A stretch of 64,000 nucleotides of DNA. Source: Gemmatimonadota bacterium (GTDB lineage: Bacteria > Gemmatimonadota > Gemmatimonadetes > Longimicrobiales > Gaopeijiaceae). The first letter of the stretch is position 1; every line of letters starts with the position of its first letter. The notes under the pieces were generated by a model. The model was given only the letters and a program-made list of their open reading frames with translations, did not search any database and was not told where the DNA came from. Shown one piece after another: positions 52,116-57,797 of this stretch. The stretch covers positions 2,944,001 through 3,008,000 of the forward strand of contig JAXHMG010000003.1 in the NCBI GenBank assembly GCA_034521595.1, given 5' to 3'. The position numbers were made by a program, and so were the translations under genes.

Positions 52116-52373
52116 ATGGTCGATCAGCAGCTCCTGGACATCCTCGTATGTCCCGAGACGAAGCAAGCCCTCCACATGGCGGACGCCGAGGTCCTCGAGC
52201 GTCTCAACGCGGCGATCCGTGAAGGGTCGGTAGCCGACCGCGGCGGCCGCAAGCTGGACGCGCCGGTGACCGAGGGGCTGATTCGCGAAGCCGGGGACGT
52301 GCTATATCCGATTCGGGACGACATCCCGATCATGCTCGTCGACCAAGCCATTCCACTACCTCAGAAGCCATGA
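52116..52373 (+). CDS. Trm112-like (UPF0434/YcaR) protein
   Basis: LLDILVCPETK...YPIRDDIPIML. Confidence 0.88.
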   Translation: MVDQQLLDILVCPETKQALHMADAEVLERLNAAIREGSVADRGGRKLDAPVTEGLIREAGDVLYPIRDDIPIMLVDQAIPLPQKP

Positions 52374-53011
52374 TGGGACGATTTCGCACCTTCCGCCTTT
52401 CGGCGCTCGCGGCCATGACAGGCGCCTTCGCCGCATGCGACGCCACGCCGCCGCCGGTGGGCATGGAACGGGGTGAGGAGCTCTACGAAACCTGCGTGCC
52501 GTGTCACGGAGAGATGGGTGACGGCAACGTCGACATCGCGGCTCCGACCATTGCCGGGCTCCCACAGTGGTACATCGAACAGCAACTCCTGAGCTTCCAG
52601 GAAGGCTGGCGCGGGGATCACCACGAGGATCTTCCCGGCCTCCGGATGCGGCCCATGGCGGTGTCCCTCACCCGGGACGGTGACATCGAGTCGGTCGCGG
52701 AGTACGTGGCGTCGCTGCCGGCGAACTACCCCGAGAGCACGCTCGACGGGAACGCCGGAGCGGGAGCCGAGCGGTACGAAGTGTGCGTAGCCTGTCACGG
52801 CGACGACGGCCGGGGCGATCAGTCGGTGATGTCGCCGCCCATCGTTCAGATGCACGACTGGTACATGCTGAATCAGATGCGCAACTTCAAGTCGGGCGCG
52901 CGCGGGGCCCACCCCGACGATACGTGGGGACAGACCATGCGCGTGAACACCGTGGCGCTCACGGAACAGGCGATGCGGGACGTGATCGCCTATGTGCAGA
53001 CGCTCAGGTAG
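52370..53011 (+). CDS. Diheme cytochrome c (c4-like) lipoprotein
   Basis: FAA-C lipobox, CVPCH and CVACH, duplicated class I domains with Met ligands. Confidence 0.9.
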   Translation: MMGRFRTFRLSALAAMTGAFAACDATPPPVGMERGEELYETCVPCHGEMGDGNVDIAAPTIAGLPQWYIEQQLLSFQEGWRGDHHEDLPGLRMRPMAVSLTRDGDIESVAEYVASLPANYPESTLDGNAGAGAERYEVCVACHGDDGRGDQSVMSPPIVQMHDWYMLNQMRNFKSGARGAHPDDTWGQTMRVNTVALTEQAMRDVIAYVQTLR

Positions 53012-53022
53012 CCGGAGACCCC

Positions 53023-53202
53023 ATGACCGACCATTCCATGCCCGAGACGGCTCCCAAGCTCACTCCCGAAGAGGAGGCGGCGTTCGCGCCGCCTTCGGAT
53101 GACGACAACCCGGCGATCGTGGACGCGAAGAAGGCGTTCGTGATCACGATCTGGAGCAGCCTGCTCTTCGTCGGGGTCGTCGTGGTGTTCGTCCTCCTGT
53201 GA
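53023..53202 (+). CDS. Small membrane protein (59 aa) in the oxidase operon
   Basis: GGAG RBS; acidic N-terminus plus one C-terminal TM helix. Confidence 0.7.
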   Translation: MTDHSMPETAPKLTPEEEAAFAPPSDDDNPAIVDAKKAFVITIWSSLLFVGVVVVFVLL

Positions 53203-53223
53203 TCCCGACACCCGCCTAGCAGA

Positions 53224-53901
53224 ATGATCGAGCGTTTCGTAGTACAGGCTTCGACCTACGCCAGCAGCATCGACGGCATCATCATGCTCGTCTTCGTGCT
53301 CGTCGGCTTCTGGTTCCTGGTCGCGGAGGGGGTCTTCTTCTGGCTCATCTGGAAGTTTCGGGAGCGTCCGGGGCAGAAGTCCCAGTACCTGACCGGTAAG
53401 GAGAAGCACGTAAAGCGATGGGTGACGATCCCCCACGCGCTCGTCCTCGTCTGCGACGTCTTCATCATCATCGGATCGGTCCGGGTGTGGTACGACGTGA
53501 AGCAGCAACTCCCGGAAGCGGACTCGACCGTCCGCGTCATCGGCCAGCAATGGGCGTGGACCTTCCAACACCCGGGTCCGGACAACACGCTCGACACGAG
53601 CGACGACATCTTCACCGTCGGGGATCTGCACGTCGAGGTCGACAAGACGTACCACTTCCGGCTCGAGTCACGGGACGTGGTGCACTCGTTCTCCGTGCCC
53701 GTGTTCCGGCTCAAGCAGGACGCGGTGCCCGGACGTGCCATCACGGGTTGGTTCCGACCCACGGAGACCGGCGAGTACGACGTCCAGTGCGCGGAGATCT
53801 GCGGCATCGGCCACGGGGTGATGGCCGCGCGCATCCACATCCAAGACGAGAATCAACACGCCGAGTGGGTCGCGGAGAACTCCACCTCCGCGGAACAGTA
53901 G
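53224..53901 (+). CDS. coxB: Heme-copper oxidase subunit II (CuA)
   Basis: Two TMs, GQQWAW, DVVHSF, CAEICGIGHGVM. Confidence 0.95.
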   Translation: MIERFVVQASTYASSIDGIIMLVFVLVGFWFLVAEGVFFWLIWKFRERPGQKSQYLTGKEKHVKRWVTIPHALVLVCDVFIIIGSVRVWYDVKQQLPEADSTVRVIGQQWAWTFQHPGPDNTLDTSDDIFTVGDLHVEVDKTYHFRLESRDVVHSFSVPVFRLKQDAVPGRAITGWFRPTETGEYDVQCAEICGIGHGVMAARIHIQDENQHAEWVAENSTSAEQ

Positions 53902-53915
53902 GCTAGGGGAAGCAG

Positions 53916-55631
53916 ATGGCTGACACCGCTGTCACGATCGAACAGGAACAGCACGAAGCCGGGGAGCACCACGGGCCCAGCGGCATCCTGAAGTACATCT
54001 GGTCCACGGACCACAAGATCATCGGGATGCAGTACATGTTCACGGGCATGTTCATGGCCGTGATCGGCGGCTTCATGGCGTACGTGTTCCGCATGCAGCT
54101 CGCCTTTCCCGGCATCGAGGTGCCGGGCTTCGGGCAGGTCTCACCCGGCGAGTACAACGCGCTGATCACGAACCACGGCTCGATCATGATCTTCTGGGTG
54201 GCGATGCCCGTGCTCATCGCCGCCTTCGGGAATTTCTTGATTCCGCTCATGATCGGCGCGGACGACATGGTGTTCCCGCGCATCAACCGCCTGTCGTATC
54301 AGATCTTCCTGTTGAGCGCGCTGATCTTGCTCGCCTCTCTGTTCGTGGAGGGCGGCGGCTTTGGCGGCGCGTGGACGGCGTACCCGCCGCTCTCGGCGTC
54401 GGGCGACTTCAATCAGACCAACATCGGGGCCACGATGTGGCTCATCGCGGTGGCGTTGGAGTTCGTCGCCTTCCTCCTCGGCGGCATCAACTTCATCGTC
54501 ACACTGATGAACTCGCGAGCGCCCGGGATGAAGGCTTACGACATCCCGCTCACGGCGTGGATGATCGTCGTCGCCAGCGTGCTCTTCATGCTCTCGGTCG
54601 GTCCCCTCATGGCCGGCGCGGTCATGCTCCTGTTCGACCAGACCATCGGCACCGGCTTCTTCGATCCCGCACGGGGCGGGGATCCGATTCTCTGGCAGCA
54701 CCTCTTCTGGTTCTTCGGGCACCCCGAGGTCTACGTGGTGCTCCTGCCGGCCATCGGCTTCGTGATCGACATCACCGCGACCTTCGCCCGGAAGAAGGTC
54801 TTCGGCTACAAGATCATGCTGTACACCGCGGTCGCGACGGCCGTGCTGAGCTTCTTCGTCTGGGCCCACCACCAGTTCGTGGCGGGCATCGACCCCCGCA
54901 TGGGGAACGTCTTCACCATCACGACCCTACTCATCTCCGTGCCCGTCGCGGAGCTGTTGTTCGTGATGATCGCGACACTCTACGGAGGCTCGATCAGGCT
55001 CACGGTGCCCATGCTCTGGGCGCTCGGCTTCATCGCCACGTTCCTCCTGGGCGGCGTGACCGGAATCTTCCTGGGCGCGAGTAGCGCGGACATCTACTTC
55101 CACGACACCTACTTCGTGTTGGCGCACTTCCACTACACGTTCTTCCCGATCGCCATCATCGGGACGTTCGCGGCGTTCACGTACTGGTTCCCGAAGATGT
55201 TCGGGAAGATGCTCGACGAGCGGATCGGCAAGATCCATTTCTGGGGCACCATCATCCCCTTCAACTTCATCTTCATCCCGCTCTTCATGTTGGGCGGGAT
55301 CGGCCAGCATCGCCGCATCTACAACTACCAGCACTTCCCCGACCTGGCCGAGCCGTACATGTACGCGCTTCGCCAGATCGCGACGATCTCGCTGGTGATC
55401 ATGCTCCTCTTCCAGGCATTCTTCTTCTACAACGTGATCAAGTCCTGGATCTCGGGTGAGAAGGCCGGAAAGAATCCGTGGAAGGCGAACACGCTCGAGT
55501 GGACGGCTCCCTCTCCGCCGCCGCACGGCAACTGGCCGCCGGAAGCGCTGCCCAAGGTCTACCGGGGCCCGTACGAGTACGGCCATCCGGATCGCGAAGA
55601 AGACTACTGGCCCCAGAACGAACCAGCCTGA
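53916..55631 (+). CDS. coxA: Heme-copper oxidase subunit I, A-family but lacking K-channel residues
   Basis: STDHK, NHG, WFFGHPEVY, WAHH, HDTYFVLAHFHY, HRRIY. Confidence 0.95.
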   Translation: MADTAVTIEQEQHEAGEHHGPSGILKYIWSTDHKIIGMQYMFTGMFMAVIGGFMAYVFRMQLAFPGIEVPGFGQVSPGEYNALITNHGSIMIFWVAMPVLIAAFGNFLIPLMIGADDMVFPRINRLSYQIFLLSALILLASLFVEGGGFGGAWTAYPPLSASGDFNQTNIGATMWLIAVALEFVAFLLGGINFIVTLMNSRAPGMKAYDIPLTAWMIVVASVLFMLSVGPLMAGAVMLLFDQTIGTGFFDPARGGDPILWQHLFWFFGHPEVYVVLLPAIGFVIDITATFARKKVFGYKIMLYTAVATAVLSFFVWAHHQFVAGIDPRMGNVFTITTLLISVPVAELLFVMIATLYGGSIRLTVPMLWALGFIATFLLGGVTGIFLGASSADIYFHDTYFVLAHFHYTFFPIAIIGTFAAFTYWFPKMFGKMLDERIGKIHFWGTIIPFNFIFIPLFMLGGIGQHRRIYNYQHFPDLAEPYMYALRQIATISLVIMLLFQAFFFYNVIKSWISGEKAGKNPWKANTLEWTAPSPPPHGNWPPEALPKVYRGPYEYGHPDREEDYWPQNEPA

Positions 55632-56209
55632 TGTCACACGCCAAGCCTATCGCCACGCTTCGTTCCGCCACGGGCATCCCCACCGGGCGCCTTGCGGTCT
55701 GGTGGGTCCTCGCCTCCGAAGTCGTTATCTTCGGAGGGCTCCTCGGAGCCTACCTGATGCACCGACTCGGGCATCCGGAGTGGGCGGACGCCGCTTCCCA
55801 CACCAACACCATGATTGGCACGATCAACACCTTCGTGCTGCTCACGTCCAGCTTCACCGCGGTCCTCGCGCACCAAGCCGCAGAGCGCGGCGACGGGAAG
55901 AAGGCTGCGAAGTTCCTGCTCCTCACCATCGGCGGCGCGCTCACTTTCGTGGCTGTAAAGAGCTACGAGTGGTGGTACGAGATCAGCAACGGGTACACGA
56001 TCACCGCCAACACCTTCTGGTCGTTCTACTACACGGTGGCGGGCCTGCACGCGCTGCACGTCATCGCCGGCGCTATCATCATGGGCGTGGTGGCGTTGGA
56101 TGCGTTTCGCGGCCGTGAGCTCCAGAGGGTCGAGCTCATCGGTATCTACTGGCACTTCGTCGACGTGGTCTGGATCTTCCTGTTCCCATTGCTCTACATC
56201 GCGAAGTAG
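55631..56209 (+). CDS. coxC: Heme-copper oxidase subunit III
   Basis: LASEVVIFG, NT.VLLTSS, GLHALHV, YWHFVDVVW. Confidence 0.93.
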   Translation: MSHAKPIATLRSATGIPTGRLAVWWVLASEVVIFGGLLGAYLMHRLGHPEWADAASHTNTMIGTINTFVLLTSSFTAVLAHQAAERGDGKKAAKFLLLTIGGALTFVAVKSYEWWYEISNGYTITANTFWSFYYTVAGLHALHVIAGAIIMGVVALDAFRGRELQRVELIGIYWHFVDVVWIFLFPLLYIAK

Positions 56210-56230
56210 ACCGAGGGTCGAGAGAGATAG

Positions 56231-56899
56231 ATGTCCGAACATCACGATGTGAACTACAAGAAGATCTACTTCACGCTGCTCGGCTTGCTGGTCGTGAGCG
56301 TGATCGGCCCGGAGTTCGGAATTCTCTGGGTCACCCTCGTGACGGCGTTCGGCGTGGCGATCGTCAAGGCGTACCTCGTCATCGAAAACTTCATGCATCT
56401 TCGGTGGGAGAAGAAGCTCATGAAGTGGATGCTGACGTCGTCCCTGGCGGTCATGGCCCTCATGTTCGTTGGCATCTCGCCCGACGTGATGAAGCACGAA
56501 GGGCGGAATTGGGTGAACGAGGCCGCGATCGCGGCGGTGGACAGGGGCATCGGAGGCGCGGCCGAAGAGGAGCCGACGGCCGTCGCCGAGGCCGAAGCCG
56601 AGCCCGGAGAGTTCAGCGCCGCTTCGACGTTCAACCAGGCGTGCGCCGCGTGCCACGGACAGGCAGGCGACGGGAACGGACCGGCGGGCGCCTCGCTCGA
56701 TCCCGCTCCCGCCGACTTCACGGATCCCGAGTTCTGGGCGGCGGAGGACCGCGACGAGGAGCGCATCCTCACGGTCATCCGTGACGGAGCCGCAGCCGTA
56801 GGGGGCTCGCCGCTCATGGTGGCATGGGGCAACAGCTACAACGAAGAGCAACTCCAGGCCCTCACCGACTACGTGATGGAGTTCCAGCCGGAGCAGTGA
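56231..56899 (+). CDS. Oxidase subunit IV fused to a C-terminal cytochrome c
   Basis: AIVKA....FMHL.WE subunit IV motif; CAACH...GDG.GP..LDPAPADF..M. Confidence 0.85.
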   Translation: MSEHHDVNYKKIYFTLLGLLVVSVIGPEFGILWVTLVTAFGVAIVKAYLVIENFMHLRWEKKLMKWMLTSSLAVMALMFVGISPDVMKHEGRNWVNEAAIAAVDRGIGGAAEEEPTAVAEAEAEPGEFSAASTFNQACAACHGQAGDGNGPAGASLDPAPADFTDPEFWAAEDRDEERILTVIRDGAAAVGGSPLMVAWGNSYNEEQLQALTDYVMEFQPEQ

Positions 56900-56952
56900 G
56901 TTCGGACCGGTCGGGGTCACGCGCCCCGCCACCGGTCCCACGAGGAGAGAAG

Positions 56953-57555
56953 ATGTCCGCACAGAGCGCCACCGCCGAATTCGATCGACGTCCGGAGCCG
57001 GTTCGAAGGGAGAAGGCCGTTTCCAACGGCGTGCTCGGGATGATCATGTTCATCTTCACCGAGGTCATGTTCTTCTCCGGGCTCATCTCGGCGCACACGA
57101 TCGTGCGCTCCCAGTCGGCCGGACAGATGTGGCCACCGTTCGGTCAGCCGCGGCTCCCGGTCGAGGAGACGGCCGTGAATACGGCCGCGCTCATGGCGAG
57201 CGGCCTCGTGCTCGTGCTTACCTGGCTCGCGTTCCGGCGGGACCCACAGCGGGCGCGCATACCGCTCCTCCTCGCGATCGGTCTGGGTGCCTTTTTCGTG
57301 CTCTTTCAGGGAGCCGAGTGGGTCGCGTTGCTCGGTGAAGGGCTCACCATAAGGTCGAGCACGTACGGCGCCTTTTTCTACCTGATCGTCGGGGCGCACG
57401 GCCTGCACGCGGTGGGGGCGCTCCTCGCCCTGGGCTGGACGTGGACGAGGCTCGACCGCGGCCGGCTTACCGCCGAGCAACTCGCCACCGTGTCCGCGTT
57501 CTGGTATTTTGTAGTACTGGTGTGGCCCGTGTTGTACTGGAGAGTATATCTATGA
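56953..57555 (+). CDS. Second subunit III-like protein (CoxC/NorE-like)
   Basis: FIFTEVMFF, NTAAL.ASG, GAHGLH, FWYFV; GAGGAG RBS. Confidence 0.85.
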   Translation: MSAQSATAEFDRRPEPVRREKAVSNGVLGMIMFIFTEVMFFSGLISAHTIVRSQSAGQMWPPFGQPRLPVEETAVNTAALMASGLVLVLTWLAFRRDPQRARIPLLLAIGLGAFFVLFQGAEWVALLGEGLTIRSSTYGAFFYLIVGAHGLHAVGALLALGWTWTRLDRGRLTAEQLATVSAFWYFVVLVWPVLYWRVYL

Positions 57556-57797
57556 GCAAGCTGACACCGATCTTCGCGCTCGCGCTCCTGCTTCTGGCGA
57601 TCTGGCCGGACGTGGCGCAGGCCTGTGCGGTCTGCTTCGACGCCACGGATGAAAACCGTCAGGCCTTCCTGGGCACGACGATCTTCCTGTCGCTCTTCCC
57701 GCTCGGCATGGTGGCGGGCGCCGGGCTCTGGGTGCGGAAGCGGTCGCAGGAGCTTAACGGGGAGGACGGGACCGTCTTCCGCGAGGACGCGGAGTAG
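57552..57797 (+). CDS. Small exported CxxC membrane protein (81 aa)
   Basis: Signal peptide ending AQA followed by CAVCF, one TM; ATGA overlap with the upstream gene. Confidence 0.75.
   Translation: MSKLTPIFALALLLLAIWPDVAQACAVCFDATDENRQAFLGTTIFLSLFPLGMVAGAGLWVRKRSQELNGEDGTVFREDAE

Follow-up and report, generated by a model that had tools for sequence, protein, structure and literature searches.

The window analysed here is a stretch of 64,000 nucleotides from a Gemmatimonadota bacterium (assembly GCA_034521595.1, contig JAXHMG010000003.1, positions 2,944,001 to 3,008,000), and it carries a gene cassette for a haem-copper oxidase of the A family. In the model oxidases of this family the lysine of the K channel is treated as indispensable for reduction of the active site. 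In the enzyme described here this lysine and the other canonical K-channel residues have been replaced in both subunit I (COX1) and subunit II (COX2), new polar residues occupy positions that line the same cavity, and the serines of the upper D-channel have given way to a glutamate, an alanine and a phenylalanine. On balance, we favour the reading that this is an O2-reducing aa3-type oxidase supplied with protons by a re-lined K cavity and a rerouted D-channel. An initial annotation, made from the sequence alone, had reported an A-family oxidase lacking its entire K channel, and had suggested a distinct subfamily that either reduces O2 through the D-channel only or has an altered chemistry.

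The best solved relatives of COX1 in phmmer searches were the aa3 oxidases of Rhodobacter sphaeroides, P. denitrificans, mycobacteria and mitochondria (E ~1e-122 to 1e-110; best PDB match, R. sphaeroides aa3, E = 9e-122), as against only E ~1e-11 for the B-family ba3 enzyme; identity to canonical A1-type aa3 oxidases was approximately 40-45%. Residues are compared below in the numbering of the R. sphaeroides oxidase (R.s.; 1m56_A for COX1, 1m56_B for COX2) or of P. denitrificans (P.d.). Conservation was assessed in the best 120 homologues (80-100% identity), of which 119 COX1 sequences were aligned and one, shorter than 540 aa, was dropped; 77 representatives containing the K-channel lysine served for comparison. 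Six histidines of the COX1 fold bind the metal centres, two of them haem a, one haem a3 and three CuB, and all six are present (H87, H406, H404, H269, H318 and H319, equivalent to R.s. H102, H421, H419, H284, H333 and H334), as are the HD pair of the Mg site (H396-D397) and the arginine pair (R466-R467). The CuA site of COX2 is complete (H154, C189, E191, C193, H197, M200), as in cytochrome c rather than quinol oxidases. E271, the glutamate at the top of the A1 D-channel, and Y273, the tyrosine of the HPEVY motif, were each found in 119 of the 119 close homologues, the covalent cross-link of the tyrosine being a feature that cannot be read from a sequence. The inventory of ligands and active-site residues given in the initial annotation is thus correct, and we identify the enzyme as a functional aa3-type cytochrome c oxidase of a distinct A1-type sub-clade.

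The K-channel region

The phmmer alignment to 1m56_A ran without gaps through helices VI to VIII, pairing 'avpTGIKif' with 'svpVAELlf'. As a result, R.s. T359 corresponds to V344, G360 to A345, I361 to E346, K362 to L347 and S365 to V350, while S299 and H300 correspond to I284 and D285; in COX2, R.s. E101 (1m56_B) corresponds to V63. All five residues of the A-family K-channel (K362, T359, S299, S365 and COX2 E101) are therefore replaced, and the helix VIII substitutions first noticed by eye, together with the isoleucine at bovine S255 (T359V, G360A, I361E, K362L and S299I in R.s. numbering), were borne out by a proper alignment that restored neither the threonine nor the lysine. The same replacements run through the clade (S299 to I/V, T359 to I/V, K362 to L/M and S365 to V, in the 119 members as compared with the 77 K-containing representatives): position 347 was Leu or Met in 119/119 homologues, and 119 of 120 COX2 sequences had V, I or L at position 63. 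Since the neighbouring E346 was likewise found in 119/119, the pattern is not due to chance. Overall, 102 COX1 positions were clade-specific, being at least 90% fixed in the 119 members and at most 10% shared with the 77 canonical sequences.

The loss is coordinated between the two subunits. Among 57 loci for which both could be examined, 41 combined the COX1 lysine with the COX2 glutamate, 14 had neither, two had the glutamate with a residue other than lysine, and none had the lysine without the glutamate; two Myxococcota loci keep Glu at the canonical COX2 entrance position. Together with the monophyly of the clade (see below), these counts uphold the proposal of a distinct subfamily changed in two subunits. 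The accompanying premise that the lysine is nearly invariant did not survive: among representatives of 50%-identity clusters, the nearest 147 with a residue at this position had Lys in 92 cases and lacked it in 55 (17 with Gln, the rest mostly hydrophobic), and such losses, far from being nearly unheard of, have already been catalogued in print. The statement that COX2 lacks the entrance glutamate holds for the canonical position, and needs to be qualified by the presence of a glutamate three residues upstream, E60, in 120/120 close homologues. This residue is not kept family-wide (Glu in three, Asp in one, Asn in four and Lys in one of nine same-family genomes), and E60 (W-6) as a general 'shifted entrance Glu' was rejected on the grounds that only three of these nine genomes have it. 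COX2 also carries H62.

The cavity has been re-lined with Thr/Thr/Ser/Ser/Glu rather than emptied. Five positions with small or apolar residues in canonical enzymes are polar, and invariant or almost so, in the clade: T304 (R.s. A319; 119/119, against A 62, S 14 and T 1 in the 77 canonical sequences), T308 (R.s. I323; 118/119, against I in all 77), S312 (R.s. G327; 119/119, against G 63 and S 13), S341 (R.s. A356; 119/119, against A 68, G 8 and S 1) and E346 itself (R.s. I361; Glu in 0/77). T304, T308 and S312 follow one another at i, i+4 and i+8 along helix VII and, as indicated by entropy periodicity, belong to its low-entropy (buried) face, which leads to the CuB ligands H318/H319. In a molecular dynamics study on the oxidase of R. 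sphaeroides (PMC10341450), the K-channel's width is measured by the Calpha distances A319-P358 and M316-K362, and the corners of its volume are set by G324, G327 and A356. Because A319, G327 and A356 thus define the channel, the new hydroxyls of T304, S312 and S341 are at positions that line it in the solved structure. The claim that the entire K channel is missing therefore stands for its canonical residues only.

Thr at position 308 was found in 0/129 K-containing and 33/65 K-less sequences of a 194-sequence tree, where it is spread over three or more distinct K-less clades; this is the distribution that would be expected if it compensated for the loss of the lysine. In COX2, H71 directly follows the proline of transmembrane helix 2 (TM2), eight residues above the E101 position, and is equally restricted (120/120 homologues, 12/12 clade loci and 9/9 same-family genomes, against 0/41 K-containing loci). 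In the nine same-family genomes the motifs AE[LM] and LEFVAF were present in 9/9 and the full T-T-S ladder in 8/9.

The D-channel and the proposed proton routes

The entrance and the asparagine gate of the D-channel are kept (D117, N106, N124, N192 and S127, equivalent to R.s. D132, N121, N139, N207 and S142; 119/119). Higher up, R.s. S197, S200 and S201, which are named as D-channel lining in PMC10341450, are replaced by E182, A185 and F186, each in 119/119; the 77 K-containing representatives have no Glu at the first of these positions, and 64 and 67 of them, respectively, have Ser at the second and third. The D-channel, described at first as intact, is accordingly so in its lower part and remodelled above. 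Across the tree, Ser or Thr at the S201 position was present in 123/129 K-containing and 14/65 K-less sequences, and lost in 6/129 and 51/65. The loss of this D-channel serine thus tracks the loss of the K-channel lysine family-wide, and the two channels seem to co-evolve. Other clade invariants were seen outside the two channels: at the D-channel mouth (D116 and R125), directly after the CuB histidine pair (Q320, where 73 of the 77 canonical sequences have Met) and before the arginine pair (Q464-H465, in place of the canonical Met-Pro). The proton exit side may have been remodelled too.

In the FastTree phylogeny of the 194 sequences, the K-less ones form eight maximal clades, and the E346-bearing crown is monophyletic. 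Its successive sisters are all K-less: L017, the locus of Puniceicoccaceae bacterium K14, then an aberrant sequence (P0263), P0121, a Calescibacterium locus and a deltaproteobacterial metagenome-assembled genome (MAG). These are followed, as next sister, by a clade that has the lysine, of the Acidobacteriota/Binatia/Gemmatimonadota type (support 0.958). L017 has E182 and F186, but Ile346 and Leu308. From this succession, the likely order of events is that the lysine and S201 were lost first, with position 182 turning acidic, and that E346, T304 and T308 followed. In a separate clade of ~20 A-family sequences (P0162, P0169, P0194, P0196, P0206, P0212, P0214 and others), the lysine position is taken by Gln or His, the N207 position by Glu and position 308 often by Thr; this looks like another undescribed channel variant. 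Several A-family subunits I in the set (P0020, P0025, P0048, P0070 and others) are annotated as 'cbb3-type' by their sources, a naming error that would mislead metabolic reconstruction.

We propose the following scheme. Electrons would pass from the c-type cytochromes of the cassette to the CuA of COX2, and from there through haem a to the haem a3-CuB-Tyr273 centre, as in ordinary A-family enzymes. With the canonical K-channel positions (S299, T359, K362, S365 and COX2 E101) turned apolar, Thr304, Thr308 and Ser312 of helix VII and Ser341 and Glu346 of helix VIII would form a carboxylate/hydroxyl path through the same cavity, to which COX2 His71 may contribute at the subunit interface; this path would supply the protons that the lysine path gives in textbook enzymes. 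The D-route would probably run from D117 through the asparagine gate to E182 and on to E271, with Glu182 (together with Ala185 and Phe186) replacing the serine ladder below Glu271. Pumping is presumed to be retained. Viewed as a whole, this may amount to a third solution to proton delivery in the A family, carried on a mobile cassette, in which both inputs have been rebuilt around buried carboxylates (Glu346 with Thr-Thr-Ser, and Glu182 under Glu271), a generalisation that we put forward tentatively. Were it true, a sole oxidase would sustain aerobic life without the 'essential' lysine, and its gating logic or pumping stoichiometry may differ from those of the textbook enzymes.

One alternative, already raised in the initial annotation, is that the K cavity is dead, that all chemical and pumped protons enter through a D-channel reinforced by Glu182, and that the new polar residues are structural. 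The D-channel residues and E271 kept in 119/119 homologues and the invariant new glutamate within this channel fit such an enzyme, as does L017, which does without E346 and T308. However, the upper D-channel has become less polar rather than more (S200A, S201F), and it is the loss of Ser/Thr at the S201 position that accompanies the loss of the lysine; five invariant polar residues in the K cavity are hard to call purely structural, and Thr308 arose repeatedly, in K-less lineages only. A D-channel-only O2 reductase is therefore not the best reading of these data, and we consider it unlikely.

An additional scenario is a change in energy coupling, in which the enzyme does not pump, pumps with a lower stoichiometry or uses another ion, the remodelling being an adaptation to, for example, saline habitats. 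The changes at the D-channel entrance (D116, R125) and at Q320 and Q464-H465 could be accommodated in this way, and the best DNA holder of the sequence is labelled as a salt pan metagenome, although this may be the window's own source and is thus not independent. The runs with small word shares (X3-X21) carry no information on habitat. Against this reading, a PF05896 search found no Na+-NQR, the labels of the genomes that carry the clade span several phyla and habitats, and the sequence has no apparent Na+ site. Na+-binding c rings carry Ser or Thr after the glutamate, whereas the ATP synthase c subunit here reads 'IEGAA', with neither. A changed coupling seems to us improbable.

Several observations weigh against the favoured scheme of a re-lined K cavity and a rerouted D-channel. 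Glu346 stands at K-1, ~100 degrees from the lysine on the helix, and its orientation is a deduction only. The basal member L017 has Ile346 and Leu308 and yet keeps the cassette, so Glu346 is not indispensable to the whole lineage, and in L089, one of the same-family genomes, position 308 is Ile. As COX2 E60 is not conserved in the family, the entrance of the proposed path is left undefined, and the replacement of S201 by Phe could just narrow the D-channel rather than reroute protons. The phylogeny comes from one FastTree run, rooted at the midpoint and built on a sample skewed towards the neighbours of the query, and literature searches found no biochemical data for any clade member.

Genomic role and chemistry

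The genome from which the window derives (three contigs, 93% complete) has exactly two PF00115 matches, the COX1 of the cassette and a NorB. A second, canonical coxA, for which the initial annotation had advised looking, was thus not found: the cassette COX1 is the only A-type haem-copper oxidase of its own genome, the canonical cNOR being encoded at another site. This genome also encodes haem A synthase (CtaA) and SCO1, and a search of it for cytochrome bd gave no match. Among closed genomes of its family, the enzyme was the only A-type, high-scoring haem-copper oxidase in 5/5; three of these had no other PF00115 match, and cytochrome bd was found in 0/5. An enzyme that is kept at 76-100% identity and is the sole candidate terminal oxidase is most simply taken as a working O2 reductase. 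A pseudogene or relic was rejected on the basis of the same conservation and sole-oxidase role.

The suggestion of an altered chemistry at the binuclear centre, such as NO reduction, rested on the new buried glutamates, as NO reductases carry conserved glutamates; A-family oxidases also show a weak NO-reductase side activity, according to PMC11214002. In the same paper, the haem-copper NO reductases, new families included (cNOR, qNOR, eNOR, bNOR, sNOR, gNOR, nNOR), are characterised by the loss of the active-site tyrosine, whereas the present enzyme keeps Tyr273 and all three CuB histidines, and has neither the missing tyrosine nor the altered B-site ligands of a NO reductase. Moreover, E346 is at the level of the lysine, and since R.s. 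K362 is ~10-13 Å from Y288 in PMC10341450, it would not be a metal ligand. The genome already holds a cNOR with its NorQ, as well as haem A synthase, and in three closed relatives the enzyme is the sole haem-copper oxidase, with no cytochrome bd. We therefore consider NO reduction exceedingly improbable, and that the enzyme reduces O2 and not NO very likely.

The nor locus (L002) lies on contig C3 at ~1,630,644-1,634,870. It encodes a 454-aa NorB, followed by a NorQ/CbbQ-like AAA ATPase and preceded by a NorC-like protein of 271 aa with two CxxCH motifs, that is, with an extra cytochrome c domain. Contigs from the RNA libraries of three metatranscriptome runs map to COX2 and COX1; they were not counted as evidence, as contigs can show neither transcription nor its level. 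Most of them are less than 95% alike (in X6, 83/1011 reach at least 99%), and the listed pieces, differing by ~7-19% from the window, come from relatives and were likewise set aside.

The cassette, its distribution and its known relatives

The oxidase is encoded in an eight-gene cassette (52370..57797; Table 1) in the order cytochrome c, small open reading frame (ORF), COX2, COX1, COX3, COX4-cytochrome c, COX3 and CxxC ORF. A cytochrome c gene matching the first one was found upstream of COX2 in 18/18 close loci covering that region (L003-L019, L021), and its product is the likely electron donor to CuA. The small ORF that follows has no Pfam match and, among the clade loci, a tblastn match in L003 only, which is weak evidence for its being a real gene. 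Downstream of COX1, the first COX3 is kept across the clade loci. The presence of two COX3 genes in the operon, both conserved in these loci, is the arrangement of 'a-III'-type cassettes. The COX4-cytochrome c fusion has a full-length match in the two closest loci only (L003, L004), the other clade loci matching over 87-167 residues. The terminal 81-aa ORF, for which a Pfam search gave no family, was matched by tblastn in 14/18 clade loci extending downstream of COX1 (L003-L017, L019-L021); with its CAVC motif it is kept as the end of the cassette across phyla, and its product may be a small subunit connected with Cu or with assembly. The ORF list and Pfam revealed no cupredoxin or rusticyanin gene within the cassette.

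Table 1. Features of the oxidase cassette, in window coordinates.
Feature	Position	Strand	Basis and remarks
Dihaem cytochrome c (c4-like), first cassette gene	52370..53011	+	Pfam Cytochrom_C 77.6 bits; CxxCH at residues 42 and 139
Small single-helix ORF (~59 aa), between cytochrome c gene and COX2	about 53023..53202	+	Translation
COX2 (subunit II, 225 aa), complete CuA site, without cytochrome c domain	53224..53901	+	Pfam COX2 62 bits
COX2 V63 codon, at R.s. E101 / P.d. E78	53410..53412	+	phmmer alignment
COX2 H71 codon ('PH' motif, TM2), clade-specific invariant	53434..53436	+	Homologue counts
COX1 (subunit I, 571 aa), A-family, A1-type helix VI motif GHPEVY	53916..55631	+	Pfam COX1 445 bits (cut-off 34.8)
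COX1 helix IV E182..A185-F186, in place of R.s. S197/S200/S201	54459..54473	+	Ungapped alignment
COX1 E271-V-Y273, R.s. E286 (proton-shuttle Glu) and Y288 (cross-link Tyr), both kept	54726..54734	+	
COX1 I284-D285, at R.s. S299 (K-channel Ser, lost) and H300	54765..54770	+	
COX1 helix VII polar ladder T304, T308, S312 (R.s. A319, I323, G327)	54825..54851	+	
COX1 helix VIII S341..V344-A345-E346-L347..V350	54936..54965	+	T359, K362, S365 lost; S341, E346 gained
COX3, first copy	55628..56209	+	Pfam COX3 69.6 bits; start overlaps COX1 stop
Prokaryotic COX4 fused to C-terminal monohaem cytochrome c (CAACH, residue 138)	56231..56899	+	Pfam COX4_pro and Cytochrome_CBB3
Second COX3-like gene (COX3 duplicate)	56950..57555	+	Pfam COX3 80 bits; conserved in clade loci
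Small membrane ORF (81 aa), signal-like helix, CAVC motif, second helix; last cassette gene	57552..57797	+	Translation

In a sample of 151 Gemmatimonadota genomes (a tally that includes the unpublished G055 and G095, with canonical-type matches only), clade members of at least 76% identity were present in 10 genomes, all of the window's own family. At a threshold of at least 70% identity the clade extends to MAGs labelled Gemmatimonadota/Longimicrobiales, Myxococcota (Polyangiales, Archangiaceae, Bradymonadia), Bdellovibrionaceae and Candidatus Eisenbacteria, and Puniceicoccaceae bacterium K14 is an isolate-labelled carrier of the basal form without Glu346, the crown-clade loci observed all being from MAGs. 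The whole cassette is syntenic in L003-L021 and has apparently been carried between phyla as a mobile unit. A 70%-identical copy in a MAG labelled Klebsiella pneumoniae (L007) is almost certainly mis-binned or mislabelled.

A tightly conserved enzyme without the lysine, serving as the sole oxidase of several closed genomes and bearing a small, defined set of replacements, offers a natural test of the long-standing question of what the lysine does (proton relay, charge compensation or gate), a test that is open to point mutations and structure determination. It is also a warning to annotators that, in Gemmatimonadota, Myxococcota and allied MAGs, the one name 'coxA' covers sub-clades that differ in function.

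With the canonical A1 aa3 oxidases (R. sphaeroides 1M56, P. denitrificans 1AR1) the enzyme shares the 12-helix COX1 with its ligands, GHPEVY motif, HD and RR pairs, a CuA-bearing COX2 and COX3, and the entrance Asp and Asn gate of the D-channel. It differs from them in the apolar residues at K362/T359/S299/S365 and COX2 E101 and in the E/A/F at S197/S200/S201; T304, T308, S312, S341, E346, Q320, Q464/H465 and COX2 H71 are new here. The K-analogue of the B-family ba3 oxidases is a single Lys-free input of Ser, Thr and Tyr with a subunit II Glu; these enzymes have no D-channel, whereas the present one keeps the D entrance and E271. The 'KC' channel of the C-family cbb3 oxidases is a helix VII ladder of hydroxyls and His/Tyr that reaches the active site without a lysine. 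Our own mapping from Table_3 of PMC8239418, for which the R.s. row 'G M A G' served as a check, would place T304 and S312 in the columns of the C-family residues H247 and Y255 (V. cholerae CcoN numbering); the columns of CcoN S240, S244, H247 and Y255 would correspond to G297, M301, T304 and S312, two of the four being protonable. Here, in contrast to the C family, the cross-link tyrosine is on helix VI, the second subunit bears CuA, and the overall similarity is to the A family.

Losses of the lysine within the A family have been described before. In a preprint by Degli Esposti et al. (2020; bioRxiv 10.1101/2020.03.01.968255), acidophilic Fe oxidisers and their relatives have a hydrophobic residue at P.d. 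K354 of COX1 and have lost COX2 E78, and mention is made of gene clusters in Gemmatimonadetes MAGs that have a duplicated COX3 and further cytochromes c. Subsequently, Degli Esposti et al. 2021 (PMC8239418) classified 'modified', 'hybrid' and 'KC-channel' variants, with A1-type examples in Calescamantes HR19, Elusimicrobia, Halobacteriovorax and Methylacidiphilum. Literature searches, outside which the supplements of the bioRxiv preprint may hold more sequences, found no description or characterisation of the present clade or of Glu346/Glu182. The Acidithiobacillus-type rus operon oxidase has likewise lost the COX1 Lys and the COX2 Glu together and kept its D-channel; its table rows, which set it apart, retain the Thr of P.d. 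T351 and are placed in A2, whereas here the residue is Val/Ile and the motif GHPEVY. The K-less A1 variants of PMC8239418 share with our enzyme a non-ionisable residue at P.d. K354 (L347), the replacement of COX2 E78 (V63) and some of the helix VII Ser/Thr, and Calescibacterium L023 (51% identity) is among the successive K-less sisters of the clade; both L023 and L022, however, lack E346, T304 and T308. The Gemmatimonadota/Myxococcota crown clade is absent from Table_3, where each of the three rows for Gemmatimonadetes shows the canonical K and the K-1 and S197 positions are untabulated (PMC8239418). Thus, while the loss of the lysine in the A family is already in print, the clade with the two glutamates is a new and well-defined variant within it.

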